Counted from the first letter of the stretch, positions 8,661-27,087 are shown. The stretch is 32,000 nt of DNA from Burkholderiaceae bacterium (GCA_965234555.1 OZ248347.1:1523270-1555269); one strand, 5' to 3'. Notes: a model not told the origin generated them from the letters alone. Translations and numbers: made by a program.

Positions 8661-8662
8661 TA

Positions 8663-13925: not shown

Positions 13926-14402
13926 ATGGTTAATTCTAAATTTTTATGTTTAAGCATGAAAAATATCTTAAAGATTGCACTAAACGAACATACGCCACCT
14001 AGGTCGGCAAAAAGTTTAGTTTATGCCTCTAAGATTTTTGCGAATGCTTATTTTGATGAACTCGAATCTACTTACTCAAAAGGTAACGTACGTGCGAGGA
14101 AAAATGGTTTAGAGTTTTTTATTTTAGATTTGATTGTAAATTTTAAAGAGAGGGATGTATCTTTTCCAACCCCTGCATTAATAAACTTACTAAAATCAGA
14201 TCAAGACATTTTTTCCTTTACCAGTAATTTGATTCAAGGTGAAACGCCATTCACAAGTTTGTGGATTGAAACATCAAAAGAAAAAAGGGAGGAAATCATG
14301 AAGGCTCATAAAGTTGTTAGAGCATTTATTGAAGATCGCATTGAGAATGTATTCAACCCTTTGTATGTTTATGTGCCAAAAAGCATACAGAAAAATTACT
14401 GA
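13926..14402 (+). CDS. hypothetical protein (158 aa), AT-rich
   Basis: ORF track; strong AAGGAGG RBS; strong terminator downstream. Confidence 0.6.
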   Translation: MVNSKFLCLSMKNILKIALNEHTPPRSAKSLVYASKIFANAYFDELESTYSKGNVRARKNGLEFFILDLIVNFKERDVSFPTPALINLLKSDQDIFSFTSNLIQGETPFTSLWIETSKEKREEIMKAHKVVRAFIEDRIENVFNPLYVYVPKSIQKNY

Positions 14403-14424
14403 TTACATTAATGACTAAGTTCTT

Positions 14425-14450
14425 AGCCCACTTTCGAGTGGGCTTTTTTC
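14425..14450 (+). terminator. Rho-independent terminator AGCCCACT-TTCG-AGTGGGCT + T6
   Basis: Read directly. Confidence 0.8.
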
Positions 14451-14452
14451 TT

Positions 14453-14469
14453 TGTCGTTTTAAACGACA
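14453..14469. repeat. PAL-5: TGTCGTTTTAAACGACA (perfect)
   Basis: Read directly; lies 3 nt beyond the integrase stop codon. Confidence 0.95.
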
Positions 14470-14472
14470 ATC

Positions 14473-15738: not shown

Positions 15739-15786
15739 CCAACTTTTTGGTTTGTGAAAAGCACAGCTTAATTTCGAAACGGATGG

Positions 15787-15801
15787 TTGGGCAACCGAAA
15801 A
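15787..15801 (-). promoter_or_regulatory. shared upstream motif (TTTTCGGTTGCCCAA on the minus strand), 48 nt before the integrase start
   Basis: See 10373-10387; PAL-6 follows 3 nt away. Confidence 0.5.
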
Positions 15802-15804
15802 ATT

Positions 15805-15821
15805 TGTCGTTTAAAACGACA
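15805..15821. repeat. PAL-6: TGTCGTTTAAAACGACA (perfect, centre A)
   Basis: Read directly; 67 nt upstream of the integrase start. Confidence 0.95.
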
Positions 15822-16019
15822 TAGCCAGAGAGGGCTATTTGGCCTGCGGATTACTACAACATCGTAATCATAATAAACATTATGTGATTATTTGGAGAGA
15901 AGAGTTGGTACTTATAAAATTGATTGTTATTCACATTAACGAAAAACTAAAATGAATTACTTGTGATTAAGCTTTTCTTTAGCAGGCATCAATACGGAAA
16001 ATTCTAATAAGCGGGCTTT

Positions 16020-17339
16020 TTATTGAGGAAAAAGTTCTAGCTGTTTTTTTATTTTTTTCGTTTTTGGCCCACCTTTCCCAGTTTCTTTAATAACATTAGC
16101 AACACTTATTGCCTTAAGCATTTGATTCGCAACTGCTCGAATTACTGGTACACATACAGAATTACCAAACTGTTTATAGGTTTGGGCATCAGAAACTGAG
16201 TTAATAATAAATGACTCTGGGAAACCTTGTAAGCGAGCGCATTCTCTTGGCGTAAGCTTTCTTGGATTCTTATTGAGTTTACTTTGGTCAATCAAAATCT
16301 CGCTTCCATCTTTGTAATATCTTGCGCTTATAGTACTTGTGTAAGGACTTTCTTTAGAAAAAAGAGAGTACCCAAATCCATTTCCTTTTATCTGATGCTC
16401 TTCTTTTCTTCGTAAATGGCCTTGCCATAACTTATCTGACAATGTATATTTTTCATCAATTTTTTCAGAGTTTTCAAGAATGTCGCCTAATCTTGTTGGG
16501 GTCATTGGTGGGTCTGGCCAACTAAAGACGTCCTCAAAATCAACATTCTTTCCAAAGTAAGCAGTATCAAAGCCTACGATAAAGATTCGCTCTCTATTCT
16601 GTGGGACTCCAAAATCTCTTGCCCTCAAAACTTTATAGAAGACTTGGTAACGAAGTTTTGCTGATAATGCTTTTCTTGCCTCATCAGACATGGGGATAGT
16701 ATCTGGAATAATCTGTTCGCTTTTGCCTTCCAATATTTCCAAGATATGCTGAAGGGTTCTTCCTTTATCGTGGCCTTTTAATTGCTTTACATTTTCAAGA
16801 AGAAATGCTTTAGGCATCTTTTCAGCTAGGATACGTTGTATCTCAAAAAACATTGTTCCGCGAGAATCATTAAAGCCTTTTTTTAATCCTGCCTGTGAAA
16901 ATGCCTGACAGGGAAATCCACCCAATAAGATGTCATGATCAGGTATATCTTTGGCTTTTATTTTTGTAATGTCTCCATTCGGTAGGTGACCAAAGTTGGT
17001 GGCATAAACTTTTTGAGAAAACTTATCCCATTCAGATGTGAATACACATTTGCCACCAAGCTCTTGAAATGGTAAACGAATACCACCTATGCCTGCGAAA
17101 AGATCAATAAACTTAAATGAATGCTTTACTTTTGCTGGCTGTTTAAATGGAACGTGTGTAGTTAATTGTTTTATTTGCTCCCATTTGGTAGGGGAGGGCT
17201 CATGCTCACCTCTCTCCCAACCGCCTACGGTCCTCTCGCCATGGTTTTTTAAGTTCATTAGGTCTGCGAACTCTATTTGGGTTAGCCCCAATAGCTCTCT
17301 TTTTTCCCTGATATATTTGGCTTTATCTGTAGATTTCAT
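16020..17339 (-). CDS. DNA (cytosine-5)-methyltransferase with an N-terminal XRE-type HTH (439 aa)
   Basis: Motifs FIDLFAGIGG (I), GGFPCQAFS (IV), ENV (VI), QNRERIF (VIII), TPRECARLQGFP (IX), GNSV (X). The ISARYYKDGSEILI segment recalls Dcm/EcoRII/SsoII-type target-recognition domains. Confidence 0.92.
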   Translation of the reverse strand: MKSTDKAKYIREKRELLGLTQIEFADLMNLKNHGERTVGGWERGEHEPSPTKWEQIKQLTTHVPFKQPAKVKHSFKFIDLFAGIGGIRLPFQELGGKCVFTSEWDKFSQKVYATNFGHLPNGDITKIKAKDIPDHDILLGGFPCQAFSQAGLKKGFNDSRGTMFFEIQRILAEKMPKAFLLENVKQLKGHDKGRTLQHILEILEGKSEQIIPDTIPMSDEARKALSAKLRYQVFYKVLRARDFGVPQNRERIFIVGFDTAYFGKNVDFEDVFSWPDPPMTPTRLGDILENSEKIDEKYTLSDKLWQGHLRRKEEHQIKGNGFGYSLFSKESPYTSTISARYYKDGSEILIDQSKLNKNPRKLTPRECARLQGFPESFIINSVSDAQTYKQFGNSVCVPVIRAVANQMLKAISVANVIKETGKGGPKTKKIKKQLELFPQ

Positions 17340-17483
17340 AGGCTTTTAACTTTTAACTTATCCTGATTTTTACCCTGATTTTTATTTAATTTTAGCTTCA
17401 TTCTCCATAAAAGATACTCACGTCTTTGAATAGGCACGGCATCTCGTGGTATGTTGGAAGCTTCTAAATGCTAGGGCTATTTA

Positions 17484-18236
17484 ATGTCTGAAAAGGACAT
17501 AATCATCAGGCTGTTTAATGAGCGAGTTAGGGGCAGGCATCCTGAAACAACTTCATTTAATCAGCGTCACGATGGAAAGGTTGGGCATTGGCTTGAGAAA
17601 CAAATGGGTATTCATGCCAATAGCAGTAATACACCAGATTTATTTGGTTATGAAATGAAAAATGACACAACTTCTAAGACCACATTTGGGGATTGGTCCG
17701 CGAACTATTACATATTCAAGAGAAATAATCCTTATGGGCTTACTCGAAGTGACTTCCTTCGTATTTTTGGAAAACCAAATCCTCTAAAAAATGGACGTCA
17801 CTCTTGGTCAGGCGAACCCATACCATCAATAAAGGGGGTAAATAAGTTTGGGCAAAACTTATTCATAGATAGTGAAAATAATATTCACGCAAAGTATCAC
17901 TATTCAAAAGATGAACGACCAGACAAAGTCTCTATTGTTCCCTTTAGCTTGAGAATTGATGATTTGACAATAGCGCGATGGGATGCCGGTAAGCTTCAAA
18001 AAAAAGTTGAAAATAAATTTAATAAGATGGGTTGGTTTAAATGTTTACGGGATTCTACAGGCGCATACTCATCTATTGTGTTTGGTGACCCAATAAATTA
18101 TGAAACTTGGATTAGCTTAGTCAAAACTGGTGACATTTACTTTGATAGTGGTATGTATGAAGGTAACATAAGGCCTTATTCTCAATGGAGAGCTGATAAT
18201 GCTCTTTGGAACAAGCTCATAACGAGTAAACACTGA
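17484..18236 (+). CDS. type II restriction endonuclease candidate, MutH/BcnI/MvaI-like PD-(D/E)xK (250 aa)
   Basis: GHWLEKQMGI-x9-PDLFGYEMK resembles the MutH/Sau3AI/BcnI catalytic motif. Divergent from the methyltransferase and AT-rich. Confidence 0.7.
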   Translation: MSEKDIIIRLFNERVRGRHPETTSFNQRHDGKVGHWLEKQMGIHANSSNTPDLFGYEMKNDTTSKTTFGDWSANYYIFKRNNPYGLTRSDFLRIFGKPNPLKNGRHSWSGEPIPSIKGVNKFGQNLFIDSENNIHAKYHYSKDERPDKVSIVPFSLRIDDLTIARWDAGKLQKKVENKFNKMGWFKCLRDSTGAYSSIVFGDPINYETWISLVKTGDIYFDSGMYEGNIRPYSQWRADNALWNKLITSKH

Positions 18237-18247
18237 GGTAGATTAGT

Positions 18248-18781
18248 ATGATTCGCTGGACATATTTTCCTAAAAACAAACCTATTACTAAGCTAGGTTT
18301 TGAAATAGTCGAGGTATTTCAAAAGCATGAGGATACTATTTCATCCACATCCAATAATCACTTAATTGGGACCGGCACGACAGACTCTCATAGTAATAGT
18401 GTTTTAGAGAAGTTAGCTAAATCTTTGGCTAGTATAGGGTTTCAGGTAGAGACGGGAAAAAAGGCTTCCCAAAAAATTCATGTTCCTGTTCTTTATGGGG
18501 AGCAAGGTAAGCCCATCCAATCATTTGATGCTGATGCCTTCAATCCAAACGAAAAGTTTGTCCTTGAGGTAGAAGCTGGAAGAGCAGTTAGTAACTATCA
18601 ATTTCTTAAAGATTATTTTCAGGCTTGCGTAATGGTGGATGTTGACTATTTAGCAATTGCTGTCAGGCAGGTTTATAACAAACAAAAAGACTACGAAACA
18701 GTCTGTGGCTTCTTTGATACCTTGTATTCAAGTGGTCGCCTAAAAACAGAGTTAAAAGGTGTCTTGATTGTTGGATATTAA
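18248..18781 (+). CDS. second nuclease-like protein (177 aa) with a D...ExE motif
   Basis: FDADAF-x9-VLEVEAGR is reminiscent of BamHI/BglII-type PD-(D/E)xK sites; starts 12 nt after the upstream R gene. Confidence 0.45.
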   Translation: MIRWTYFPKNKPITKLGFEIVEVFQKHEDTISSTSNNHLIGTGTTDSHSNSVLEKLAKSLASIGFQVETGKKASQKIHVPVLYGEQGKPIQSFDADAFNPNEKFVLEVEAGRAVSNYQFLKDYFQACVMVDVDYLAIAVRQVYNKQKDYETVCGFFDTLYSSGRLKTELKGVLIVGY

Positions 18782-18962
18782 GACTCTCTAAATATCTCTT
18801 ATGGTAATTGTATTTTTATTATTTTTAATCTGATTTAATTTTTTGACAAACGCTGGAACTAAAAATTTTTAATTTTTTTCTTGTGAATTGTTATTAAATA
18901 GGCTGAGGCTCATCTGGTGATCTTTTAATCCCCTATGCTTAGGATACTTTATGGGAGGATCT

Positions 18963-19118
18963 ATGAAAAAACGTCTTTATAGCTTAGGTTTTGGGATCGC
19001 ATTTGTATCTTCTTTGTTTCTAAGTCAGGCAGTATTAGCCTGTACCACTCAAACCCTAATAGTAGGTGGCAAGATGACCGTGTGTACTGTCTGCGGCACA
19101 GTTGTGTCTTGTATGTAA
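18963..19118 (+). CDS. small lipoprotein (51 aa precursor, lipobox VLAC; mature peptide has 4 Cys)
   Basis: Translated by hand; GGGAGG RBS; below the ORF-track size cut-off. Confidence 0.5.
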   Translation: MKKRLYSLGFGIAFVSSLFLSQAVLACTTQTLIVGGKMTVCTVCGTVVSCM

Positions 19119-19128
19119 GGAGGTTCTT

Positions 19129-19452
19129 ATGAGATTCTTATTTTTAATCGCTGGGTTGGCCGTATTGCCCGTACAAGCACAAATCACATTCTTTAATGAT
19201 TCTTTGGGCATGCCACTGGGCACAGCCAATCAAGTAGGTAACACCACGTTTTACAGCGATGCCATGGGGTTACCTTTGGGCACAGCACAAACCATTGGTA
19301 ATACAACCTTTTATAGCAACAGTCTTGGCTTGCCGTTGGGTACGGCGAATACTCCACAACCTATCCCTTCATACACGCCCCGCTACGGTCCGCCGTCGTC
19401 TCCAACTTTTCCTACAGCGCCACTATTTCCAACCAGTCCTCGTGGTATGTGA
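19129..19452 (+). CDS. secreted tandem-repeat protein (three repeats of about 20 aa, GNTTFYSxxxGxPLGTA, plus a Pro-rich tail)
   Basis: ORF track 19102..19452, start moved to the ATG at 19129 behind an AAGGAGG RBS; signal peptide ..PVQAQ. Confidence 0.6.
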   Translation: MRFLFLIAGLAVLPVQAQITFFNDSLGMPLGTANQVGNTTFYSDAMGLPLGTAQTIGNTTFYSNSLGLPLGTANTPQPIPSYTPRYGPPSSPTFPTAPLFPTSPRGM

Positions 19453-19501
19453 TGATTTATATTTAGATTATGTGAACACTTGCTGAACGCAGATTAAAGA
19501 A

Positions 19502-19870
19502 ATGAGCCAGAAAAAGTACAAAGTAGTTACCCATGAGGCCAATTACACCCCACCTGATTTTGGCTCACTACTTCCAGTTAATGAATTTGATACAGCGGAA
19601 GAAGCAATCAAGTGCCTCAAGCAAGTCATAGATAAGCAACTATTAGCATCCCTAAATGAAGGGAAAACACCTAAAGACACATATGACTTATTTTCTCTTT
19701 ATGGTGAGATTCCCATTATTGAAGGGGAACCAAGGGTGTATGTACATCCTTTTGAATATGCTAAAAAGAGAATTCAGGAGCTGGCCTATCTGAAGATCAT
19801 AAAAAAAATTGATGATCATATGTACCTAAAAGAACAAGAAAATTTGAAGTCAATCAAAAAAGATGATTGA
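19502..19870 (+). CDS. hypothetical protein (122 aa)
   Basis: ORF track; no family recognised. Confidence 0.5.
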   Translation: MSQKKYKVVTHEANYTPPDFGSLLPVNEFDTAEEAIKCLKQVIDKQLLASLNEGKTPKDTYDLFSLYGEIPIIEGEPRVYVHPFEYAKKRIQELAYLKIIKKIDDHMYLKEQENLKSIKKDD

Positions 19871-19991
19871 TAATTACTAGATTTTGATATAGACTGAAAG
19901 TACATCAAGAGATGGCTTTGTCGCCACAGCAACCTGCTAACGCAGTAAGGTGCTAAAAAGATGAGACTCTATACGAGTAATCAAAAGCGAC

Positions 19992-20016
19992 AAACCCGTC
20001 TTTTGGCGGGTTTTTT
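19992..20016 (+). terminator. hairpin AAACCCG-loop-CGGGTTT + T tract
   Basis: Read directly; lies inside the 5' extension of ORF 19961..20770, which argues for the later start. Confidence 0.5.
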
Positions 20017-20083
20017 ATTGGGCGGATTTATTCCTACTTGCCATGCCCAGACAGGTGTCGAAATAGCTAAATTGGAGAAAGAA

Positions 20084-20770
20084 ATGAAAACTAATCACTT
20101 TGCTTTTTATCGTAAACGCATCCGCCAACCCCAAGAAAAGATTGCTGAAATACTAAATGTTCCATTAGATGTCTATATTGAATTTGAGGAGAACAAACGA
20201 GAGTCGTCTCAGCGGGTTAAAGAAGCTTTTGATTCTTTGTTAGCTCGCTTTCCCGGCAGCACAGATTTGTCATCATTAAAGATGCCTGCTATTGACCGGT
20301 ACAAAGCGGATTACCTATTTAAAACTGGTAAACAGCCTACAGGTAAGCATTGGATTCCATTTTCGTTCGCAACAAGCAAAAGAACGCTGGTTGATTTCAG
20401 TCCTTACGATGATGATTTAAATAAGGGAGTTATTAAGACTGAAGCAGAAATGAATCAATGGATCAATGAGCATGACTTACCTCCAATGATCACACCTGAA
20501 TACTTTAATCACCTAACCACACTGAATAATCGAGAGCTTCAAGAAGAGGCAGAATTTTGGGATAGATTTTATACAGCTCAGCATTATGGGAAATATAAGT
20601 CGAGAACAACACCAAAAGAACTTGAGGAGCAAATTAGGAGGAAAAGTGAGCAAACTAGAACGTATTGGATTAATAGAGTTCATAGTGTGCTGTTAAAACT
20701 ATTCGCAGGGCTAATTATTCTATGGGCTATTGCTTATCTAATTTTATGGTTAGATAGGTATAAACTTTAA
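20084..20770 (+). CDS. membrane-anchored protein with a weak N-terminal HTH-like segment and a C-terminal TM helix (228 aa)
   Basis: ORF track 19961..20770, start moved to the ATG at 20084 (GGAGAAAGAA RBS). C-terminal LLKLFAGLIILWAIAYLILWL. Confidence 0.5.
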   Translation: MKTNHFAFYRKRIRQPQEKIAEILNVPLDVYIEFEENKRESSQRVKEAFDSLLARFPGSTDLSSLKMPAIDRYKADYLFKTGKQPTGKHWIPFSFATSKRTLVDFSPYDDDLNKGVIKTEAEMNQWINEHDLPPMITPEYFNHLTTLNNRELQEEAEFWDRFYTAQHYGKYKSRTTPKELEEQIRRKSEQTRTYWINRVHSVLLKLFAGLIILWAIAYLILWLDRYKL

Positions 20771-20771
20771 T

Positions 20772-20788
20772 TGTCGTTTTAAACGACG
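20772..20788. repeat. PAL-7: TGTCGTTTTAAACGACG (1 mismatch)
   Basis: Read directly; begins 2 nt after the stop of the upstream CDS. Confidence 0.85.
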
Positions 20789-20815
20789 TTATAAATCGAG
20801 GTTATAGCTCATACT

Positions 20816-21079
20816 ATGAGCCACAATAACTTTATTCTTCCTAGAGAATCAGCTTTTTTTAAGTCGGGAGAACCCATGAGTAATGTTGAAATTCTAGGAA
20901 AATTCAAGTGCCAGCCTATTAAAGTTAGATTGCGAGATGAACTCAATCCATTTAATCAATTGAAATCCAAAACAACAGCTCTTCCCTTAACTTATACAGA
21001 TTTAGTCTATGAGCGCGATGTCACAGATCAAAATCTCACTAACTACGAAGGCTCTATGAATAAGTTAAAAACGAAATAA
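20816..21079 (+). CDS. hypothetical protein (87 aa; alternative start at 20876)
   Basis: ORF track. Confidence 0.4.
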   Translation: MSHNNFILPRESAFFKSGEPMSNVEILGKFKCQPIKVRLRDELNPFNQLKSKTTALPLTYTDLVYERDVTDQNLTNYEGSMNKLKTK

Positions 21080-21110
21080 ACAAAAGATTAATTAATTTAT
21101 CAAGGCACAC

Positions 21111-21608
21111 ATGAGAGAACTTTCACACCTTTTTACCAGAGAAACCCCAAGACAAATCATTCTTGAAGACTTCAAGATTGATCTTCCAATCACTGGCAGC
21201 TGGGGGTATGACTTTGAATCAGCCTGCGTTATTGATAAAAATGATCCGATAGTAAACCAAACTATTCCATTTAATGGTGTGAGCATTGAATATATATTTG
21301 TTGAAAAACGAATATACGAGGAGATGATTATTTTCCGCGAGGCTAATGAAAAATTCTCAGGCATTAGGTGGGATCTAGAAAAACAAGAGCTTGTCTTTCA
21401 AAATGAAAAGCCTTACGACAAGCTTACTTTTAAGGTTGTAGGCTTTGCTGATGAGGTGTGGGACGAGCTAACAAGGCGTTTTGAAGAACTCAAAAATAAA
21501 GGTCAATTAGATCTACTTCCTGAATTAGACGCCTATAGGGATTCGAAAGCCTATAGATTTACTAGAGAGTATTACTTTGATATTTCAAGCTTTTATGGTC
21601 AGCCGTGA
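21111..21608 (+). CDS. hypothetical protein (165 aa)
   Basis: ORF track. Confidence 0.5.
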   Translation: MRELSHLFTRETPRQIILEDFKIDLPITGSWGYDFESACVIDKNDPIVNQTIPFNGVSIEYIFVEKRIYEEMIIFREANEKFSGIRWDLEKQELVFQNEKPYDKLTFKVVGFADEVWDELTRRFEELKNKGQLDLLPELDAYRDSKAYRFTREYYFDISSFYGQP

Positions 21609-21635
21609 TCTGGTTTGCCCACCAAGATATGCGAC

Positions 21636-21652
21636 TGTCATTTAAAACGACA
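21636..21652. repeat. PAL-8: TGTCATTTAAAACGACA (1 mismatch, centre A)
   Basis: Read directly. Confidence 0.85.
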
Positions 21653-21684
21653 CATTCCATAACCTCACGGATGGGATATTCCCC
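21653..21684 (+). repeat. R-box copy (CATTCCATAACCTCACGGATGGGATATTCCCC)
   Basis: Near-identical to 23936-23966 and similar to 26928-26957; always immediately right of a PAL. Confidence 0.85.
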
Positions 21685-21699
21685 AGTTTGAGCTTGGCT

Positions 21700-21730
21700 G
21701 GGGCGGAATCGAACCAGGGCCGAGGATGTC
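21700..21730 (-). repeat. L-box copy; minus strand reads like a tRNA T-loop plus 3' acceptor remnant (..GGTTCGATTCCGCCCC)
   Basis: Similar to 22788-22823 and 23863-23901. Confidence 0.75.
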
Positions 21731-21869
21731 TGATCCACCCAACTAATTTACCCCTAAATCACCCACTTTGAGGAGATAGGATATGGTTGGTAGGCTTTTA
21801 GCCATCACACCCTGCTTGCATAATGAAAGGCTTGTGTTTCATATTCAATCGATGGGTTAGTGCTACCAG

Positions 21870-22691
21870 CTATTTTTTTAGATTTTGTTTTAAAAACATG
21901 GCTACTGCATCACGTGCATTTGTTGCGTCATATGTATTGTCATGACCCGTACCGCCAAGCTCAAGCGTTGTTAGCGATCCATCCATCCTTCCGTTTGAAC
22001 ATCTTGATTTTGCTTGTCCAAACCAAGGATCGATACTATATGAGATTACAAGACTCCTTACACCCTGTTCAAATCCAATACCCGTAAAACAAAAACCGCT
22101 TGATAAAACTATTCCGCGTATACCTTCTATCTGGGTTCGAGCAAGGGCCTCTGCACCTTCACTGTGTCCCATAAAAAATATGTTATCAACATCTACCCAT
22201 GATAATTTTTTAAGCTCAAGCATTGCATACGCAATCTCTTGTTCTCTATAAGGAATAGCCATTGGAAAATTATTTGTTACCGAATTAGTACGGGAGTCGC
22301 AATTTGAAATTCTTTTTGGCCTAGCAAAGCTATCTGGCAGTATCACGACAAATCCGAGATTAGCAATATATTGCCCCCATTGTTGATCATGATAAGACTG
22401 TATGCCTGCACAACCATGAAGATAGATAGCCACAGGATATTTTTGGTCTAATTTTATATTTTTGATTCTTTTTGCAAAATTACTTTCTGGAATAAAAACC
22501 ATAGCTTTATCCCAGCTATTTTCAATGCCCTTGTCCATATGAATTTTTCCTGCAGCCCTATCTTTTGCTAATTGCTCGATATACCTATCCCCATCGGCTA
22601 TAGATTCAGACCCTGGTGGCTCCTCAAGAGCATGACTACTAAATGTCAAAAATAATAGTGCTGAAAATAATAGCTTTAAGGAAAGTTTCAT
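21870..22691 (-). CDS. secreted alpha/beta hydrolase (dienelactone-hydrolase-like), 273 aa
   Basis: Signal peptide; nucleophile elbow GHSEGA. Confidence 0.7.
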   Translation of the reverse strand: MKLSLKLLFSALLFLTFSSHALEEPPGSESIADGDRYIEQLAKDRAAGKIHMDKGIENSWDKAMVFIPESNFAKRIKNIKLDQKYPVAIYLHGCAGIQSYHDQQWGQYIANLGFVVILPDSFARPKRISNCDSRTNSVTNNFPMAIPYREQEIAYAMLELKKLSWVDVDNIFFMGHSEGAEALARTQIEGIRGIVLSSGFCFTGIGFEQGVRSLVISYSIDPWFGQAKSRCSNGRMDGSLTTLELGGTGHDNTYDATNARDAVAMFLKQNLKK

Positions 22692-22787
22692 ATTTTTCTA
22701 ATATTTTTATTGAGGTTATTTAACTTTAACATTCAAATTTGATTAAGAATGAACAAATCATCTCAAGCTAGTTATGATGTTTCTTGC

Positions 22788-22823
22788 GTGGCCCGAGGCA
22801 AAATCAGCTTGGGCTGAGCATGC
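22788..22823 (-). repeat. L-box copy (diverged)
   Basis: About 30 of 36 positions match 23865-23900 by hand alignment. Confidence 0.7.
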
Positions 22824-22840
22824 TCATCGCGTGCTTATTC

Positions 22841-22857
22841 TGTCGTTTTAAACCACA
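22841..22857. repeat. PAL-9: TGTCGTTTTAAACCACA (1 mismatch)
   Basis: Read directly; followed by a degenerate R-box (..GCACAGGGATGGAACATC..). Confidence 0.85.
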
Positions 22858-23007
22858 TCTACTGGCACAGGGATGGAACATCTTTGTAGCTCCCCCCACC
22901 GCTACATGAAGCCTTGCTTTAAAGAACATTACTTAATTGCGCTCAATAAATTAACCAGGCCGCGAAAATAAGATTACGTCTAAGTAATCGTAAATGTAAA
23001 ATCTGTA

Positions 23008-23682
23008 ATGAAAATTATTACTAATTCAATATCAAATGATCTTATGCTAAAAAATTTATTTGTGATCATTGTTTCTTGTGCCTTGATAGGCTGCTCTGCA
23101 ACGATGGGGCCAAGTGGGGATCAAACTAGGCCTGGCATTATTGTATTACCCACAAGCGGCGGCGTTCATCATGAGAATTCTTATGCCTCACAACTCAGCA
23201 GAAAAGGTTTTCAGGTAGTGGTTGCTGACTACCATCAACGCGGTGGCACAGACAATATAACCTTAGCCTATGATGCTCTCCGTAAAGATCCTCGAGTTGG
23301 AAAAATTGGAATGGTTGGGTTTAGTCGTGGAGCAGTTATGGGCGCAAATCATGCTTATTTTCTCCACCAAAACAGCGATCGAAAAATTGATGCGATTGTG
23401 AGTTTTTATATTGGGCCCACAACGCCACATGCTAATACATCAATACTGCCGATATTATTTTTACAAGGTGAATTAGATAATTATGTTAAGCCAAATCAAT
23501 TGATACAGTTTTGTAACGCTTTGGATGCCAGCGGCAAGCGTTGTAAGGTAAAAGAGTTTAAAAATGTGGGGCACGCTTTTGATCAAACGAGAACCCTGCC
23601 AATTTATTCAGGCTTTAATCGCGAGGCTACTGAAGATTCCTATGATCTAACCATACAATGGCTTAATCAGTGGCTTAAATAA
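23008..23682 (+). CDS. lipoprotein alpha/beta hydrolase (dienelactone-hydrolase family), 224 aa
   Basis: Lipobox LIGC; nucleophile elbow GFSRGA; C-terminal GHAF. Confidence 0.7.
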   Translation: MKIITNSISNDLMLKNLFVIIVSCALIGCSATMGPSGDQTRPGIIVLPTSGGVHHENSYASQLSRKGFQVVVADYHQRGGTDNITLAYDALRKDPRVGKIGMVGFSRGAVMGANHAYFLHQNSDRKIDAIVSFYIGPTTPHANTSILPILFLQGELDNYVKPNQLIQFCNALDASGKRCKVKEFKNVGHAFDQTRTLPIYSGFNREATEDSYDLTIQWLNQWLK

Positions 23683-23711
23683 TTACTTTTGTTGTGCCGA
23701 CTATCAAAAAA

Positions 23712-23728
23712 TATCGTTTTAAACGACA
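23712..23728. repeat. PAL-10: TATCGTTTTAAACGACA (1 mismatch)
   Basis: Read directly. Confidence 0.85.
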
Positions 23729-23756
23729 TCGACTGACATAAGGATGAATAATTGAC

Positions 23757-23775
23757 GCGTCCTTTTAAAGGACGC
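23757..23775. repeat. variant palindrome GCGTCCTTTTAAAGGACGC (different arms, same TTTTAAA centre)
   Basis: Perfect 9-1-9 palindrome read directly, inside the gene-less PAL-10 to PAL-11 interval. Confidence 0.8.
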
Positions 23776-23862
23776 TTCATGATGGGGATATCCGGCTCTA
23801 ATGGCGTCTAAGCCTACCAAGCCCAAAAGAAAATAGCCCAACAAGTGGGCTATTGAGATTCT

Positions 23863-23901
23863 TGGTGGCCCGGGGCGGAATCAACTAGGGCTGAGGATGC
23901 C
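23863..23901 (-). repeat. L-box copy; minus strand ends ..GATTCCGCCCCGGGCCACCA (T-loop end, T-stem, 7-nt acceptor strand, A, CCA)
   Basis: The spacing is exactly that of a tRNA 3' end. The T-stem 5' strand does not pair, so this is a remnant and not a gene. Confidence 0.7.
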
Positions 23902-23918
23902 TAACTCTAACTCTAGAC

Positions 23919-23935
23919 TGTCGTTTTAAACGACA
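23919..23935. repeat. PAL-11: TGTCGTTTTAAACGACA (perfect)
   Basis: Read directly; flanked by an L-box on the left and an R-box on the right. Confidence 0.95.
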
Positions 23936-23966
23936 AATTCCATAACCTCACGGATGAGATATTCCC
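23936..23966 (+). repeat. R-box copy
   Basis: AATTCCATAACCTCACGGATGAGATATTCCC; continues into a promoter-like block homologous to 26958-27010. Confidence 0.85.
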
Positions 23967-24019
23967 ATGGTTGGGCATGGCTGGCTCTTGAGACCTTTTG
24001 ACCTTATAATTACTAGTTC

Positions 24020-24050
24020 GGCGAATTAGCTCAGCTGGTTAGAGCGACGG
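24020..24050 (+). pseudogene. tRNA-Met 5' fragment (positions 1-31) with the island-borne upstream block
   Basis: 31/31 identity to 27011-27041; the upstream ~85 nt is homologous to 26928-27010. Confidence 0.9.
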
Positions 24051-24065
24051 GATCCGACTCCGAAC

Positions 24066-24455
24066 CTACAAAAGCGGTTGAACAAACGCAAACCATCCAC
24101 CTATCATTAATAAGCTAAGGCTAATCCAATAAATTCGTTCTGAGAATTTCCGTGTTTTTAAGCAGGCATCACGCATCTTAGGATCAATCGGACATGGGGC
24201 ATTTCGATTACGCCACTGCAATATGCCGCCAATGAGCATCAAACCACTACTTAATGCAAATATCGCCTCTTTATGCTCGCTAATCCACACAATCTTTGGA
24301 AATACAGATACTAAAGAGGCGAGCGTTGCCCCCGCACCCAAACTGACCAGGAGTGCGGGGATGGCACAGCAAATGAGGGTACTCGAACTCGCAAAGAGGC
24401 TAATTAAAGAACTGATATAGCTTGTCTTTGTTTCATTCAAGCCGTCTTGACTCAT
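24066..24455 (-). CDS. MerT-like heavy-metal transport membrane protein (copy 2)
   Basis: 129 aa; same CC and C..C motifs as copy 1. Confidence 0.6.
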   Translation of the reverse strand: MSQDGLNETKTSYISSLISLFASSSTLICCAIPALLVSLGAGATLASLVSVFPKIVWISEHKEAIFALSSGLMLIGGILQWRNRNAPCPIDPKMRDACLKTRKFSERIYWISLSLLMIGGWFAFVQPLL

Positions 24456-24778
24456 TTTTTATCCTTCTGCTGAGCCCTAAACTGGGCAACTGTCTGGGAG
24501 ATCGTTTCAATCTTGACCACGTCGTAGCCTGAGTCTTTAATCTCTTGACTAATCAGCTTCTCGTTTAAGGTTTTACCTTCCTTTGCCTCAACGACCACTA
24601 CTTTATTTTTGAGATCCACAAAAACGGCTTTGGTCTCATCCATCTTTGAAATACTTTTTTCAATACCTTGGGCACAAAACGAGCAAACCATGCCATTGAC
24701 AGTGACCTTCATGCTTGCCAGTGCGGTCTGACTCAAACCCATTAATGCGATTGCGATGATTAAGTTGATCTGTTTCAT
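24452..24778 (-). CDS. periplasmic HMA-domain protein (copy 2)
   Basis: 108 aa, GMVCSFC; 6 differences from copy 1. Confidence 0.85.
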   Translation of the reverse strand: MKQINLIIAIALMGLSQTALASMKVTVNGMVCSFCAQGIEKSISKMDETKAVFVDLKNKVVVVEAKEGKTLNEKLISQEIKDSGYDVVKIETISQTVAQFRAQQKDKK

Positions 24779-24788
24779 CTTGATTCTC

Positions 24789-25439
24789 CTAATAGTTATA
24801 CATAAAGTTAAAACGCAGTTGTCCTGATAAATTGGCGCCTGCCTCTACAAAGTACCGTTTATGAATGACCCTTACCATCGGGGTGAACTCATACTGCTTA
24901 GAAACAAAGGTCATACGCCTTGCCTCAACCACGATCCAGGGCTGAGGCTCATCGTAGTCAGCCTCATAAAAGGAGGCGCCCAAACGAGCCGTAGTGATAT
25001 TGCTCGTGGCCCCCTGTGCCGCATAGACCCGGGCTGATGCCATGGAATAAAAGCGGGTAGTCTCATAATCCACCTGAATACCGGGTGACGCCATGGCTTT
25101 TGAGCCACCAAAGGTATTTCCGGTTGTAGAGCCAAGGCCGCCAATAAACCAGATATTGGCTTGAGCCTCTGGCAGATTCCAGCGCGCTACCTTGCGGGTG
25201 TAAACCGCTTCAAGATTTTGCTGTTTTGACACAGAGTTATCCGTTTGCATAGCGCTTGCTGAAATTCCAAATGCATCGTTTGCGGTAGTGGCATAGTTCA
25301 AGCCAAACTCCTGATAGGTTTTACTAAAGTCACCCATCAGCATCCAGCTGTTCTTAAACCCCATCGGTGCCGCAAATGAATTTGAGACAGCTCCCACCAC
25401 TAGCAGAAAAAAACTCGCCAGACTAATCGCTTGCTTCAT
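24789..25439 (-). CDS. putative outer-membrane beta-barrel protein (copy 2)
   Basis: 216 aa; mature part nearly identical to copy 1. Confidence 0.55.
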   Translation of the reverse strand: MKQAISLASFFLLVVGAVSNSFAAPMGFKNSWMLMGDFSKTYQEFGLNYATTANDAFGISASAMQTDNSVSKQQNLEAVYTRKVARWNLPEAQANIWFIGGLGSTTGNTFGGSKAMASPGIQVDYETTRFYSMASARVYAAQGATSNITTARLGASFYEADYDEPQPWIVVEARRMTFVSKQYEFTPMVRVIHKRYFVEAGANLSGQLRFNFMYNY

Positions 25440-25717
25440 TTGAGTTTTTCCATCACTGTGATATCAAGCGTTCCATCAACAACCTTAATCTGGAATCGAA
25501 CCCTGTCTCCAGGTCGATATTGATCCAATGGAATCTCCTTAACCACCCCAAAAGGCATGGTCATCGGGGCCATCTTGATACTGGGTATGTACTCATGCTT
25601 GAGCACAATACGGCTACGTGATTGATCAACACGCACTACTTCGCCATTAACCCATTCGGGGCTGGCATAGACATAGACCGAAAATAGACTGAGGAATACA
25701 ACAATCAATCGCTTCAT
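25436..25717 (-). CDS. CusF-like periplasmic metal-binding protein (copy 2)
   Basis: 93 aa; MAPMTMPF motif. Confidence 0.8.
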   Translation of the reverse strand: MKRLIVVFLSLFSVYVYASPEWVNGEVVRVDQSRSRIVLKHEYIPSIKMAPMTMPFGVVKEIPLDQYRPGDRVRFQIKVVDGTLDITVMEKLK

Positions 25718-25772
25718 TTAACTCTCCAAAAAAGATCAAACCCAAAATTTGGGCGGACTTATCCTAGGGGAG

Positions 25773-26138
25773 TTAAAGAATGGGTGGCTTATTAGCGACC
25801 GAGAGGTCGATACCCGTTAGTGTTTTGAGGGAGGTAGAAAAAGTTTGTGTAAATCGATCTGTTATTAGCGCAGGAACAGAATTTGGTAATAAACCAAAGG
25901 CCATGCATAAAGTACATGAGTAGCATCGATCCCCATTCACTTCAATGGCTTGGTGACTATCCATGGAATGTTGAGCTGCATCACCATTTTGGTGACAAGG
26001 ATGGGCTGCTACCGACTCCTGCATCTGGCTCACGGGGGTGACAAGCATTTTTTGCATGCCCATATCCAACACCGCCCAAGCTTGGACAGGTATTAGAGCA
26101 ATCAAGGAAACAAGCAATAATCTTTTAAACATAGACAT
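25773..26138 (-). CDS. small secreted Cys/His-rich protein (copy 2, most diverged member)
   Basis: 121 aa; HPCHQ and CYSCTLC conserved, central region differs from copy 1. Confidence 0.55.
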   Translation of the reverse strand: MSMFKRLLLVSLIALIPVQAWAVLDMGMQKMLVTPVSQMQESVAAHPCHQNGDAAQHSMDSHQAIEVNGDRCYSCTLCMAFGLLPNSVPALITDRFTQTFSTSLKTLTGIDLSVANKPPIL

Positions 26139-26215
26139 AGCTTAGCACCATCAGAATAAGTCTGCAGAGTAGCTTTGTCAGCTAAAAATCCCCAATTTGC
26201 TGCAGTCCACAATTT

Positions 26216-26249
26216 GGTGAAATAGCTCAGCTGGTTAGAGCGATGGAAT
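26216..26249 (+). pseudogene. diverged tRNA-Met-like 5' fragment (GGTGAAATAGCTCAGCTGGTTAGAGCGATGGAAT)
   Basis: 3 substitutions relative to 27011-27044 (2 in the acceptor stem, 1 in the anticodon stem); same upstream context as fragment 7086. Confidence 0.8.
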
Positions 26250-26855
26250 GGACAATCGAAAACTCAAATTAGCATCTACTGCTGGGAATTCGTCTGCCAA
26301 AATACTGTAAACACAAGTATCTCGAATACTAGCTTTGGCATCTGGGTGACGATTAATTTGATGACTTCGTAATACGCCATCTAATTTCGCCCCCAATCTC
26401 TCAATACCTCGACGACTTTGATGATTAAAGAAATGAGTACGAAATTCCACTGCAATACAATCAAATTTTGTGAATGCGTGACGTAACAATAGCAATTTAC
26501 ATTCCGTATTAATTGCTGTTCGCTGAGCCGACTGTCGATACCAAGTAGACCCTATCTCGAGTCTGCGATTATCCTGATCAATATTCATGTAAGTTGTCAT
26601 TCCAATGGGGCTCCCTTTGGCATCCAAAACACAAAATGGATTCATAGAGCCCAACTGCTGTAAGCCCAAACGCCTATCAATCTCCTTTGCCATTGCCTCA
26701 GGCGAAGGAATGCTTGTGTACCAAAGTTTCCAAAGTTCACCATCTCTAACAGCTTCACATAAACCATCATGATGCGCCATTGTTAATGGCACTAATGTGG
26801 CATGCTTACCTTGTAGGGTTACTGATTCCGAGAATTTCATAGCGGGATATGTCAA
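26235..26855 (-). CDS. GNAT-family N-acetyltransferase (RimJ/RimL-like), 206 aa
   Basis: Length and layout (..LRHAF......IAVEFRTHFFNHQSRRGIERLGAKLDGVLR..) are typical of the GNAT fold. The last ~5 codons are encoded by the tRNA remnant. Confidence 0.75.
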   Translation of the reverse strand: MTYPAMKFSESVTLQGKHATLVPLTMAHHDGLCEAVRDGELWKLWYTSIPSPEAMAKEIDRRLGLQQLGSMNPFCVLDAKGSPIGMTTYMNIDQDNRRLEIGSTWYRQSAQRTAINTECKLLLLRHAFTKFDCIAVEFRTHFFNHQSRRGIERLGAKLDGVLRSHQINRHPDAKASIRDTCVYSILADEFPAVDANLSFRLSIPSL

Positions 26856-26894
26856 TGGCTGTGAATCTTCATTCTGCCATACGGATGGAGAACT

Positions 26895-26909
26895 TTGGGT
26901 AACCGAAAA
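26895..26909 (-). promoter_or_regulatory. shared upstream motif (TTTTCGGTTACCCAA on the minus strand), 39 nt before the GNAT start
   Basis: See 10373-10387; PAL-12 follows 1 nt away. Confidence 0.45.
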
Positions 26910-26910
26910 C

Positions 26911-26927
26911 TGTCGTTTTAAACGTCA
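26911..26927. repeat. PAL-12: TGTCGTTTTAAACGTCA (1 mismatch)
   Basis: Read directly; 83 nt upstream of the intact tRNA. Confidence 0.85.
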
Positions 26928-26957
26928 CACCCACAACCTCACGGATCGGATATTCCC
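26928..26957 (+). repeat. R-box copy (CACCCACAACCTCACGGATCGGATATTCCC)
   Basis: Homologous to 21653-21684 and 23936-23966. Confidence 0.8.
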
Positions 26958-26995
26958 GTGGTTGAGCTTGGCTGGCTCTTGAGCCCTTTTGACCT

Positions 26996-27001
26996 TATAA
27001 T
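26996..27001 (+). promoter_or_regulatory. consensus -10 hexamer TATAAT, 9 nt before the tRNA 5' end (island-borne promoter candidate)
   Basis: Read directly; duplicated at 24005-24010; no convincing -35 (TGGCTC at 17-nt spacing). Confidence 0.35.
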
Positions 27002-27010
27002 ACCTAGTTC

Positions 27011-27087
27011 GGCGAATTAGCTCAGCTGGTTAGAGCGACGGAATCATAATCCGCAGGTCCGGGGTTCAAATCCCTGATTCGCCACCA
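27011..27087 (+). tRNA. tRNA-Met (anticodon CAT); could instead be tRNA-Ile2 if C34 is lysidinylated
   Basis: Hand-folded cloverleaf: acceptor GGCGAAT/ATTCGCC, D arm GCTC..GAGC, anticodon arm ACGGA-ATCATAA-TCCGC, V loop AGGTC, T arm CGGGG-TTCAAAT-CCCTG, encoded CCA; 77 nt. Confidence 0.9.

Follow-up and report, generated by a model that had tools for sequence, protein, structure and literature searches.

A composite genomic island in the tRNA-Met gene of a freshwater Polynucleobacter probably carries a captured flank of another species' chromosome

The DNA analyzed here (32,000 nucleotides, hereafter the window) was taken from a Polynucleobacter-type chromosome, and its source is a freshwater Polynucleobacter. 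The natural chromosomal order at this locus is a solute-binding protein (SBP) gene, a five-gene cluster of putative periplasmic metal-handling proteins, tRNA-Met, and FrhB-like and DctMQP genes. In the window, an island interrupts this order within tRNA-Met, and the metal cluster occurs twice, once beside the SBP gene (copy 1) and once inside the island (copy 2). The features of the locus are listed in table 1.

Table 1. Features of the tRNA-Met island and its surroundings, in coordinates of the window
Feature	Position	Strand	Remarks
Native SBP gene, ModA-like	4161..4922	+	Pfam SBP_bac_11, E=4.8e-47; found in empty-site contigs
Copy 1, five-gene metal cluster	4919..7002	-	Pfam HMA and CusF_Ec; weak MerT match
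Copy 1 MerT-like membrane protein	4919-5317	-	
Copy 1 periplasmic HMA protein	5314-5640	-	
Copy 1 216-aa secreted protein	5651-6301	-	
Copy 1 CusF-like protein	6298-6579	-	
Copy 1 Cys/His-rich protein	6637-7002	-	
Native tRNA-Met upstream/promoter region, type A	7003..7085	+	Has CAATTTGCTACAAT
Displaced chromosomal tRNA-Met 5' part, positions 1-39	7086..7124	+	attL side
Composite genomic island, 19,925 bp	7125..27049		Absent from L044
Conserved left arm of island	7125..7344	+	Ends at first 15-nt palindrome (7328-7342)
Tyrosine recombinase, small (188 aa), catalytic domain only	10446..11012	+	Pfam Phage_integrase, E=1e-24
421-aa tyrosine-recombinase-like protein	14473..15738	-	Pfam Phage_integrase, E=1.4e-4, under curated cutoff
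Element-type tRNA upstream region, type B; right end of core island	23916..24019	+	Palindrome and promoter-like TTGAGA...TATAAT
Internal tRNA-Met 5' fragment, positions 1-35	24020..24054	+	A32G
Putative donor SBP gene 3' end remnant, CGACTCCGAACCTACAAAAGC	24055..24075	+	Overlaps stop codon of copy 2 MerT-like gene
Copy 2 of metal cluster, mosaic of two allele types	24066..26138	-	All ORFs intact
Copy 2 MerT-like	24066-24455	-	
Copy 2 HMA	24452-24778	-	
Copy 2 216-aa protein	24789-25439	-	
Copy 2 CusF-like	25436-25717	-	
Copy 2 Cys/His-rich	25773-26138	-	
Donor-type native tRNA-Met upstream region (type A spacer)	26139..26215	+	Probably captured with cluster
Donor tRNA-Met 5' fragment, positions 1-34, probably captured	26216..26249	+	C3T, T7A, C29T
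GNAT acetyltransferase gene	26235..26855	-	Pfam Acetyltransf_3, E=8e-15
Type B upstream region, now driving reconstituted tRNA-Met	26907..27010	+	
Intact tRNA-Met (CAT)	27011..27087	+	ARAGORN; Rfam tRNA, 67 bits

Two Pfam domains in the cluster, HMA (E=4.6e-9) and CusF_Ec (E=2.2e-19), together with the gene neighborhood, suggest metal handling of Cu/Ag or Hg type in the periplasm. The cluster resembles known genes for periplasmic handling of Cu/Ag and Hg (CusF, HMA/MerP-like, MerT-like) in these domains, in an HMA protein with a signal peptide and a GMxCxxC motif, and in a Cys-rich membrane protein, but it differs from them in having no RND pump, ATPase or regulator inside the cluster. In other contigs, homologous clusters adjoin the gene of a P1B-type ATPase (copA). 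No curated family matched the 216-aa and Cys/His-rich proteins. For the 216-aa protein, a candidate outer-membrane beta-barrel, searches of Pfam, NCBIfam and PDB sequences gave no match and AlphaFold2, run on a 2-sequence alignment, gave a pLDDT of 29; its only visible features are the signal peptide and a C-terminal ...FNFMYNY.

The island is bounded by an exact 44-nt direct repeat (left 7081-7124, right 27006-27049), and its empty site was found in contig L044. This contig consists of window positions 3375-7124 (1 mismatch) and 27006-28739 (0 mismatches) with nothing between, in the order SBP gene, copy 1, intact tRNA-Met and right flank; the whole 19.9 kb (7125-27049) is a single indel relative to it, an indirect hint that the composite may excise through its outer sites. 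The same empty-site structure is present in L036, L037, L039 and L040 at 96-98% identity. Because all of these contigs carry the SBP gene, copy 1 and tRNA-Met in this order, copy 1 is the native, resident cluster of the chromosome, as an earlier note on this DNA had assumed. Copy 1 is 97-100% identical to island-free conspecific contigs, with a dS of 0.01-0.08 to L036, and genes of the flanks have a dS of about 0.1 to conspecifics versus at least 0.9 to other species. The CAATTTGCTACAAT sequence is shared by L002, L030, L031 and L036-L045, where it precedes the leftmost tRNA-Met fragment or intact gene.

The 5' parts of tRNA-Met were located by the 20-mer TAGCTCAGCTGGTTAGAGCG, which occurs four times in the window versus 0 expected. 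ARAGORN identified only one intact tRNA-Met, whose 5' part up to position 39 is island-derived and whose 3' part is chromosomal. Three well-resolved breakpoints on the tRNA side (positions 39, 35 and 34) all lie within the 7-nt anticodon loop. Two internal att-derived repeats (24020-24054 and 26216-26249) separate the modules of the island, and the region just before the first of them (23916-24019) is 89% identical to 26931-27053. The core element is discrete: in L064, its right end (23817-24054) is joined straight to the left arm (7125 onward), and L062-L064 and L067 have the type B upstream region joined to the arm, with tRNA positions 1-39 together with both. The left arm, which had no Rfam match, follows tRNA-Met positions 1-39 in L025, L031 and L002 and positions 1-32 in L030, and all four contigs diverge directly past the arm palindrome.

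Two genes of the island encode tyrosine recombinases or recombinase-like proteins, and neither adjoins an island end. The 421-aa protein, whose gene sits mid-island, is 38% identical (BLASTP E=1.6e-96) to a 403-aa integrase in L002 that adjoins a tRNA-Met fragment and passes the Pfam cutoff. It and the 188-aa protein are both candidates, neither of them certain, for the recombinase that targets tRNA-Met. An AAA ATPase is encoded at 13254-13916; no primase or helicase match was obtained in the island, many of whose ORFs are without annotation. ORF and Pfam annotation revealed no recombinase in the cluster and GNAT modules, which would thus need to be moved in cis or in trans. The GNAT gene, whose last four codons and stop lie inside the tRNA fragment 26216-26249, is a later single-gene module.

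The earlier note had described a diverged second copy of the cluster collinear with 4930-7124. This was confirmed at 83% nucleotide identity, with the bounds refined to 24052-26249 and ~4908-7124, a stretch of five genes, the intergenic region and the tRNA-Met 5' part. In-register repeat blocks have identities of 83% (4934-5233/24072-24371), 75% (6592-6798/25728-25934) and 79% (6859-7119/25989-26249), and a megablast alignment of copy 2 with L044 (the same as copy 1 except for one mismatch) gave 82.99% over 2193 columns with 18 gap openings. Such similarity is far beyond chance. At the protein level, the HMA proteins differ at 6 of 108 residues, the same count as reported before; the 216-aa proteins have 15 differences (seven of them in the signal peptide); and identical residues number 81/94 in the CusF-like, 114/133 in the MerT-like and 82/124 in the Cys/His-rich proteins. 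Values of dS between the copies are 0.63-1.58 and those of dN/dS are 0.03-0.13; both copies are under purifying selection with strong constraint. Copy 2 is probably expressed and useful.

Copy 2 is itself a mosaic. Positions 23900-24350 and 25700-27000 are 97-100% identical to L046-L048, and positions 24350-25650 are 98-100% identical to the copA-linked type of L029, so that the central 1.3 kb matches alleles found elsewhere beside copA-type ATPase genes. The uneven divergence between the copies, pointed out previously, comes in part from this recombinant patch inside copy 2. In the mosaic map, the identity of copy 1 to copy 2 exceeds 91% in no segment, and hence the two show no trace of exchange.

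Phylogenetic analyses placed the two copies apart. In a neighbor-joining tree, copy 1 is sister to a group of copy 2, L001, L025 and L002 (bootstrap 100), and in a 36-taxon tree copy 1 falls among the conspecific native copies with support 100, and copy 2 elsewhere. The copies are therefore not each other's closest relatives, and the proposal that copy 2 came from another lineage in which the cluster also neighbors tRNA-Met is borne out by L059-L061, which have this arrangement natively at the same locus. L060 carries an SBP remnant, the cluster, intact tRNA-Met and the right flank (at 84%), and the arrangement in L059 and L061 is similar. The L060 cluster is 87.8% identical to copy 2 versus 82.9% to copy 1, and the spacer between cluster and tRNA in copy 2 is 93-94% identical to L060 and L059 versus 79% to copy 1. 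L060 and L059 are island-free chromosomes of another species, and the island segment is collinear with their native att-adjoining DNA, including the spacer and the SBP remnant. Since they are only 79-94% identical to copy 2, varying by segment, they represent the donor type and not the donor. Judging from these comparisons, copy 2 is xenologous, most likely acquired from the same chromosomal spot in another species.

It had also been suggested that the three stem substitutions in fragment 26216-26249 mark a foreign tRNA in need of compensatory changes. This was not upheld: relatives carry 0, 1, 2 or 3 of these substitutions, and all intact tRNA-Met copies seen have one sequence, even in hosts whose flanks are only 84% identical, so the changes reflect stepwise decay of a dead fragment. 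A functional foreign tRNA allele was rejected, as none of these intact copies shares the substitutions together with compensatory partners.

Comparison with L060 places the start of the collinear DNA at ~24052-24055, in the last SBP codons (~4908 in copy 1). The SBP gene is the left chromosomal neighbor of copy 1, and the homolog of its last codons is the leftmost DNA of the segment that carries copy 2, where CGACTCCGAACCTACAAAAGC matches the native L060 sequence CAACTCCGAACTTACAGAAGC, encoding ...YGYPTPN. Since the Pfam SBP domain reaches residue 250 of 253, the SBP 3' end is genuine coding DNA. Fragment 24020-24054 is fused to this chromosomal DNA in the anticodon loop, in agreement with the anticodon-arm breakpoint proposed in the earlier note. 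Junction support was assessed with independent assembled contigs. The distal junction is also present in L057 (99.5%, spanning 21768-24125), L046, L048 and L052; the proximal junction and the GNAT module are spanned by ten contigs from different samples and assemblers (L046-L055), of which L047, L049 and L055 continue into intact tRNA-Met; and contig L058 equals window positions 7939-24042 at 100%. Both internal junctions are thus real, being present in independent metagenome assemblies. For the attL junction (7124/7125), the equivalent was seen in contigs of other genomes, not of this exact strain. As the capture junction is common to several genomes, capture predates this strain; it did not happen in this genome.

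The overall explanation is likely to be a composite island in tRNA-Met with a captured flank of another species' chromosome. Site-specific recombination in the anticodon loop would have brought the island into tRNA-Met. Elements of its family would bring their own promoter and tRNA 5' half, so that the resident 5' half (7086-7124) was pushed far to the left and the functional tRNA combines an island half with a chromosomal one. Three layers may be distinguished: the core element (7125-24054); a captured stretch (~24052-26249) running from the last SBP codons through the cluster and the native tRNA promoter to the 5' part of tRNA-Met; and a GNAT module of one gene (26250-27049), which adds a new promoter and another tRNA 5' half. 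The captured stretch would correspond to the DNA directly left of tRNA-Met in island-free chromosomes such as L060. In a donor lineage, either aberrant excision or recombination between the element and the SBP 3' end would have joined it, at tRNA position 35, to the core element's right end. Routes other than imprecise excision also give this structure, and both integrase-mediated and illegitimate recombination fit the data. The likeness of the SBP 3' end to the tRNA anticodon arm does not exceed chance (41% of background windows score as well), so an integrase-mediated event at a secondary site is no more than a candidate. The composite may since have moved along with the island while its inner tRNA fragments decayed, and in the central 1.3 kb of copy 2 recombination would have substituted a widespread allele, one found elsewhere next to a copA-type ATPase. 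In L025, the resemblance of the junction to the tRNA extends to position 48, as could result from more than one capture or from patching of the junction by conversion. We infer the order of these events and the enzyme behind the capture junction.

Several other explanations were considered. It is rather unlikely that the cluster, promoter and tRNA 5' half never were a captured flank and instead form the usual cargo of an independent, non-autonomous (CIME-like) integrative module, in which case the "native" arrangement here and in L060 would be an old integration that lost its left att site. Such a module would agree with the occurrence of the cluster in at least four junction contexts (SBP gene; tRNA fragment; 12 nt from the arm palindrome in L030, L031 and L035; copA) and with L030, where the tRNA fragment directly follows the SBP gene and the cluster is inside the island. 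However, copy 2, like the L060 cluster, is flanked on its left by an SBP 3' end, which is genuine coding DNA; the copy 2 spacer has the native type A promoter, not the type B of the element; and neither the window's species nor L060 has a tRNA fragment left of the cluster.

It is very improbable that homologous recombination, instead of site-specific integration, brought in the island with copy 2 by using similar sequence on either side (on the left the cluster, on the right tRNA and flank). Copy 2 does provide 2.2 kb homeologous to the resident cluster, the 1.3-kb recombinant patch shows that homologous exchange acts on the cluster, and cargo varies between genomes, with homology stopping at conserved short palindromes. 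On the other hand, the insertion is framed by an exact 44-nt repeat whose end is in the anticodon loop, and apart from this its flanks are identical to the empty site; the 91% ceiling on identity between the copies speaks against exchange, and the junction of type B upstream region, tRNA 1-39 and arm, expected of a circle or tandem array, was found in four to five contigs.

An assembly artifact, with the locus of one strain or species joined in tandem to its variant from another through the tRNA sequence they share, is hardly credible. Repeats such as the tRNA parts and clusters are indeed apt to break assemblies or cause misjoins, tRNA fragments form the ends of many related contigs, and L050 (proximal end island-type, distal end copA-type) may be a chimera; yet both junctions recur in the contigs named above, a Logan contig reproduces the island body at 100%, and at 83% identity the copies diverge too much for an assembly graph to collapse or cross them. 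A recent duplication of cluster and tRNA 5' half inside this genome, followed by fast divergence under relaxed selection, can be dismissed: the copies run collinear in one orientation at a distance of only 19 kb, but their dS is as large as that between species, their dN/dS indicates strong constraint, copy 2 groups with copies of other genomes at bootstrap 100, a contig with near-identical flanks lacks it wholly, and copy 2 with both its junctions is present in other metagenomes at 90-97% identity.

Beyond the captured flank, the island is punctuated by a 15-nt palindrome, (T)GTCG-TTTWAAA-CGAC(A), whose geometry (5-nt arms around a 7-nt asymmetric center) is the same as that of the anticodon-arm att core. 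One joint reading, which we consider unlikely, is that the island belongs to an undescribed Polynucleobacter element family that replaces the tRNA-Met 5' half and has a conserved 220-nt arm and exchangeable palindrome-punctuated cassettes, the palindrome being a possible recombination site. If so, the palindrome would be the site for one of the two island tyrosine recombinases, forming an integron-like cassette system anchored in a tRNA gene, and capture of the chromosomal cluster would be one outcome of such promiscuous recombination. An integron gene-cassette array proper was rejected, as the sites are perfect 15-nt palindromes rather than attC-like imperfect sites of 60-120 nt, and the sole IntI-type integrase match was a sub-threshold NCBIfam hit (E=0.005, 16 bits vs a cutoff of 220).

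In specialized transduction by lambda gal/bio and in aberrant island excision, host DNA adjacent to the attachment site enters a mobile element. The island probably likewise delivered att-adjacent host DNA to a new host, which became a partial merodiploid. In contrast to the lambda type, both att-derived cores are kept here, no element genes were lost and no phage genes are evident, and the event is old, its product having spread and recombined. An island capturing host DNA is tidy but not unprecedented; it is an ordinary kind of event, well documented here. Displacement of a 5' tDNA fragment is known from a minority of the islands collected by Islander (159 of 3919; PMC4383910). The anticodon-centered class of Islander and the present island share an intact tRNA gene at one end with a cognate fragment as direct repeat at the other, an anticodon-loop crossover, tyrosine recombinase genes inside, and absence from a close relative. 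The features by which Islander recognizes an island, tDNA with a displaced fragment, an integrase gene in the interval and absence of the interval from a near relative, are all found here. The present island differs in that its displaced piece is the 5' half, which means that promoter and 5' half of the functional tRNA are of island origin, and in that the recombinase gene adjoins neither end.

Tandem accretion of integrative and cis-mobilizable elements has been reviewed (PMC5704250), and related systems are "additive" flexible genomic islands and stacked tycheposon remnants (bioRxiv 10.1101/2020.12.28.424599; PMC10872708). As in accreted elements, modules are split here by partial tRNA copies, the inner att remnants are decayed and the outer ones perfect, some modules (cluster, GNAT) are without an integrase of their own, and the composite acts as one insertion/deletion unit. 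An integrase in each module, as Islander expects of a tandem array, is not found; tycheposons have a tyrosine (or serine) recombinase beside a tRNA att site and a replication/primase-helicase module, whereas in this island no replication/primase module is seen and the recombinases are not att-adjacent, which makes it no more than a possible member of that group. What distinguishes the present island from accreted elements is that one of its modules, rather than being foreign cargo, is the ortholog of the recipient's own neighboring genes, from the same locus of another species.

By exact look-up of the HMA protein of the native metal cluster (copy 1), we located island-free contigs in which the left flank is followed by a solute-binding protein (SBP) gene, copy 1, an intact tRNA-Met gene, an FrhB-like gene and DctMQP. 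The closest of these (L044) differs from the window by one mismatch over 3375-7124 and by none over 27006-28739, and four others (L036, L037, L039 and L040), which are 96-98% identical to the window, also lack the island. Relative to these contigs, the window contains a single insertion of 19,925 bp (7125-27049), bounded by an exact direct repeat. Since the island-free contigs carry copy 1 only, copy 1 is the cluster resident on the chromosome and copy 2 is part of the island. The original 5' half of the tRNA gene is displaced by the island, which brings a new promoter region and 5' half; such displacement of a 5' fragment was recorded for 159 of 3919 islands in Islander (PMC4383910). Contig L064 has the right end (23817-24054) of the core element fused directly to the left arm (7125 onward), and in three others (L062, L063 and L067) the element-type upstream region, tRNA positions 1-39 and the arm form one stretch. 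These joins indicate that the core element is a discrete unit, existing without copy 2 either in circular form or in tandem.

Features of the island and its attachment site (window positions)
Feature	Position	Strand	Detail
Direct repeat, left	7081-7124		44 nt, exact; ends at last base of anticodon loop
Direct repeat, right	27006-27049		44 nt, exact; ends at last base of anticodon loop
tRNA-Met 5' fragment	7086-7124		tRNA positions 1-39; no substitutions
Left arm	7125-7344		~220 nt
Core element	7125-24054
Polynucleobacter-1 RNA motif (RF01718)	9300-9439	+	79 bits, full length
Tyrosine recombinase, 188 aa	10446-11012	+	catalytic domain only; one-mismatch palindrome in coding sequence (10599)
Tyrosine recombinase, 421 aa	14473-15738	-	palindromes either side (14454, 15806)
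HTH + C5 cytosine methyltransferase	16020-17339	-
LlaMI/MvaI-BcnI-like endonuclease	17484-18236	+
SAM-I/IV riboswitch (RF01725)	19897-19994	+	66 bits
Unannotated ORF, 269 aa	19961-20770
3' end-like segments of a different tRNA	21702-21745, 23863-23905	-	T-loop GGTTCGATTCC ... CCA
tRNA-Met 5' fragment	24020-24054		tRNA positions 1-35; A32G
tRNA-Met 5' fragment	26216-26249		tRNA positions 1-34; C3T, T7A, C29T
GNAT module	26250-27049
tRNA-Met (CAT), sole intact one in window	27011-27087		Rfam 67 bits
Palindrome, example sites	7328, 12454, 14454, 15806, 20773, 23920, 26912

The two copies lie in collinear blocks (~4908-7124 and ~24052-26249) of five minus-strand genes followed by an 80-nt spacer and a tRNA part, with 83% nucleotide identity over 2193 aligned columns. 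The genes encode a Cys-rich membrane protein with weak resemblance to MerT, an HMA protein with a signal peptide (Pfam E=4.6e-9), a 216-aa secreted protein, a CusF-like protein (Pfam E=2.2e-19) and a Cys/His-rich protein; in copy 2, every one of the five ORFs is intact. In a scan of species-representative genomes, the cluster occurred in Polynucleobacter and in MAGs of related Burkholderiaceae. No record matches the MerT-like protein of copy 2 exactly. For the 216-aa protein, a profile search of PDB sequences gave nothing meaningful, and AlphaFold2 models of its two window copies were unusable (pLDDT 29).

To clarify the ancestry of the copies, we built a neighbor-joining tree of a four-gene region from 24 taxa, in which copy 1 was sister to a group of copy 2 and the clusters of three other loci (L001, L025 and L002) with a bootstrap of 100. 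With more loci, copy 1 fell among native copies of the same species (support 100) and copy 2 among copies of other genomes, as the earlier note had proposed in assigning copy 2 to another lineage. The copies differ from each other by a dS of 0.63-1.58, with dN/dS of 0.03-0.13, and the dS between copy 1 and the cluster of the island-free contig L036 is 0.01-0.08. For flank genes, dS is ~0.1 to conspecific contigs and at least 0.9 to the hosts of L025, L002 and L031. Thus, the two copies are long-separated orthologues under purifying selection; the trees and the dS between them exclude paralogues that arose in this genome.

The divergence between the copies is uneven, and protein comparison agreed with the counts made from the sequence alone: the HMA proteins show 6 differences over 108 residues, the 216-aa proteins are near-identical in the mature part (15 differences over 216 residues, 7 of them in the signal peptide), and the Cys/His-rich proteins are more diverged (82 of 124 aligned positions identical). 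The dN/dS between copies is lowest for the HMA gene and highest for the Cys/His-rich gene, so constraint accounts for part of the unevenness. Another part is mosaicism within copy 2. Segment 23900-24350 is 98-99% identical to contigs of the same composite structure (L046-L048) and 77-82% to a widespread allele (L029-type); in 24350-25650 the values are 82-90% and 98-100%, respectively, and in 25700-27000 they are 97-100% and 68-82%. Similarly, the dS of the copy 2 HMA gene is 0.00 to L029 and 1.54 to L046. In six contigs (L026, L028, L029 and L032-L034) the gene immediately downstream of the widespread allele encodes a copA-type P1B ATPase, and in L027 this allele adjoins ars-type genes. The identity of copy 2 to copy 1 does not exceed 91% in any segment, so there has been no conversion between the two resident copies.

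Other genomic contexts of the cluster were also observed. In L025 (992-7057), an RND efflux system (OEP, HlyD/CusB-like and AcrB-like) lies in the island beside the cluster. In L030 (6235-6917), the native promoter and a tRNA-Met fragment come directly after the SBP gene, and the cluster is in the island after a partial arm; therefore, either the native position of the cluster varies between lineages or the cluster was lost there.

The predicted lineage in which such a cluster neighbors tRNA-Met was found in metagenomes. The exact copy 2 upstream region fused to an intact tRNA gave no metagenome match, and a relaxed, gapped pattern of copy 2-type spacer plus intact tRNA-Met matched three contigs (L059-L061), each with a complete tRNA-Met. 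L060 contains, in order, a homologue of ORF 3659-4159, a 15-codon SBP remnant, the cluster, intact tRNA-Met, and FrhB-like and DctM genes, the last two being 84% identical to the window. L060 comes from another species and is an island-free chromosome with conserved local synteny. Its cluster shares 87.8% identity with copy 2 and 82.9% with copy 1, and the spacer between cluster and tRNA in copy 2 is 93-94% identical to those of L060 and L059 and 79% identical to that of copy 1. Along its whole length, the cluster in the island of L025 matches L060 at 86-95%. The three contigs stand for the donor type, not for the actual donor.

Comparison with L060 also revealed that the bases after 24054 (CGACTCCGAACCTACAAAAGC) are not tRNA sequence but the 3' end of the donor SBP gene, encoding ...YGYPTPN. 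The distal junction therefore joins tRNA position 35 to the SBP 3' end, with ATC common to both partners, and its earlier placement in the anticodon arm holds. A tRNA fragment of positions 1-48 with a decayed anticodon arm and a shared-derived extra C was rejected, as L060 identifies the sequence after position 35 as SBP. The junction is identical in five contigs (L002, L046, L048, L052 and L057) and is patchy and more tRNA-like in L025. Its presence in several genomes implies that the capture is older than this strain; either capture was repeated or the junction was later patched by conversion. An anticodon-arm-like secondary attachment site at the SBP 3' end was also rejected, its similarity to the tRNA core being at background (41% of 252,558 windows score as high). 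Because similarity between the SBP end and the tRNA core does not exceed chance, we claim only the ATC microhomology, and the capture may or may not have been integrase-mediated.

Independent assemblies agree with this structure. A Logan contig of run ERR15093876 matches window 7939-24042 at 100%, L057 (99.5%) covers 21768-24125, and L046, L048 and L052 cross the distal junction. The Cys/His-rich gene, tRNA fragment and GNAT gene occur together in ten contigs (L046-L055) from several samples and assemblers, of which L047, L049 and L055 extend into an intact tRNA-Met.

The tRNA 5' part is present in three extra copies in the window (0 expected by chance), and their well-resolved breakpoints (39, 35 and 34) all fall within the 7-nt anticodon loop, which hints at integrase cleavage. 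Stem substitutions in the fragment after copy 2 had been taken as evidence of a foreign tRNA. This reading is not supported: the corresponding fragment has no substitutions in L053, C3T only in L025, L046-L049, L051 and L055, G1A and C29T in L054, and the same three as the window in L050, and intact tRNA-Met is one identical sequence in all loci recovered, including hosts with flanks only 84-93% identical. The substitutions thus represent decay, step by step, of a dead fragment. The GNAT ORF ends within this fragment (26235-26249), its last four codons and stop being the reverse strand of tRNA positions 20-34, and the junction is identical in at least ten other contigs.

A 15-nt palindrome, GTCGTTTWAAACGAC, occurs at 13 sites between 7328 and 26926 (up to two mismatches; 0.04 expected), all inside the island and none in the 12 kb of flanking sequence. 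Among the fetched loci (516 kb) it was found almost only in island-type contigs, plus one site in L021. Blocks of homology to other genomes stop at palindromes (7343, 23714, 23919 and 26927), and the palindrome could serve as cassette boundary, operator or recombination site. The arm also ends at a palindrome; it is conserved after tRNA-Met 1-39 in L025, L031 and L002 and after 1-32 in L030, with a strongly conserved core GGAAGCC..ATGG...GG.TGG..GGTTAGGC.CACGGAGT. Rfam gave no credible match on the arm or on 21500-24100. Neither of the two tyrosine recombinase genes in the island is beside an island end.

The island also carries a Polynucleobacter-1 RNA motif, a type II restriction-modification pair (16020-18236) and a SAM-I/IV riboswitch lying upstream of, and overlapping, the called start of a 269-aa ORF. 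Two segments resembling the 3' end of a different tRNA, on which ARAGORN and Rfam made no call, both adjoin pieces of the element-type promoter region and may be relics of another attachment site.

From the structure, ancestry and donor-type arrangement established here, we infer the following order of steps and their enzymology. An element of this island family would have resided at the tRNA-Met of a donor whose native order was SBP, cluster, tRNA-Met, and the anticodon loop of its tRNA part would have recombined with the SBP 3' end. This might have happened by aberrant excision, or by integration at the SBP end followed by accretion and excision via the outer sites; either route would enclose the native interval in the element. 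The GNAT module would have been added next, at the reconstituted tRNA. The composite then presumably moved between lineages while inner att remnants decayed and the cluster recombined with other alleles, and the last step would be normal integration into the tRNA-Met of this strain, beside the resident orthologue.

This is a natural case of flank capture, in which neighbor genes of an att site in one species were delivered beside their resident orthologues in another, leaving the recipient with two divergent metal-handling clusters, both under purifying selection. The empty site, donor-type arrangement and several intermediates are all in public data; therefore, the history can be read with little guesswork. 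The tRNA-Met locus in freshwater Polynucleobacter is a hot spot for mixing between the chromosomal and mobile gene pools, and cluster alleles recombine across genomic contexts. No new principle is involved: elements are already known to accrete at tRNA genes and to capture adjacent host DNA. Our search of a literature library, whose matches did not include a 2017 AEM paper on Polynucleobacter genomic islands, found no description of this Polynucleobacter island or the palindrome.

The island is not an integron. It qualifies as a tRNA-integrated island under the rules of Islander, is centred on the anticodon and displaces the 5' fragment. Its accreted modules recall the tandem arrays of Islander but do not each have their own integrase. 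Such accretion is similar to that of ICE, IME and CIME elements (PMC5704250) and of additive flexible islands and stacked tycheposon remnants (PMC10872708; bioRxiv 10.1101/2020.12.28.424599), and the capture of flanking host DNA by the island resembles specialized transduction.
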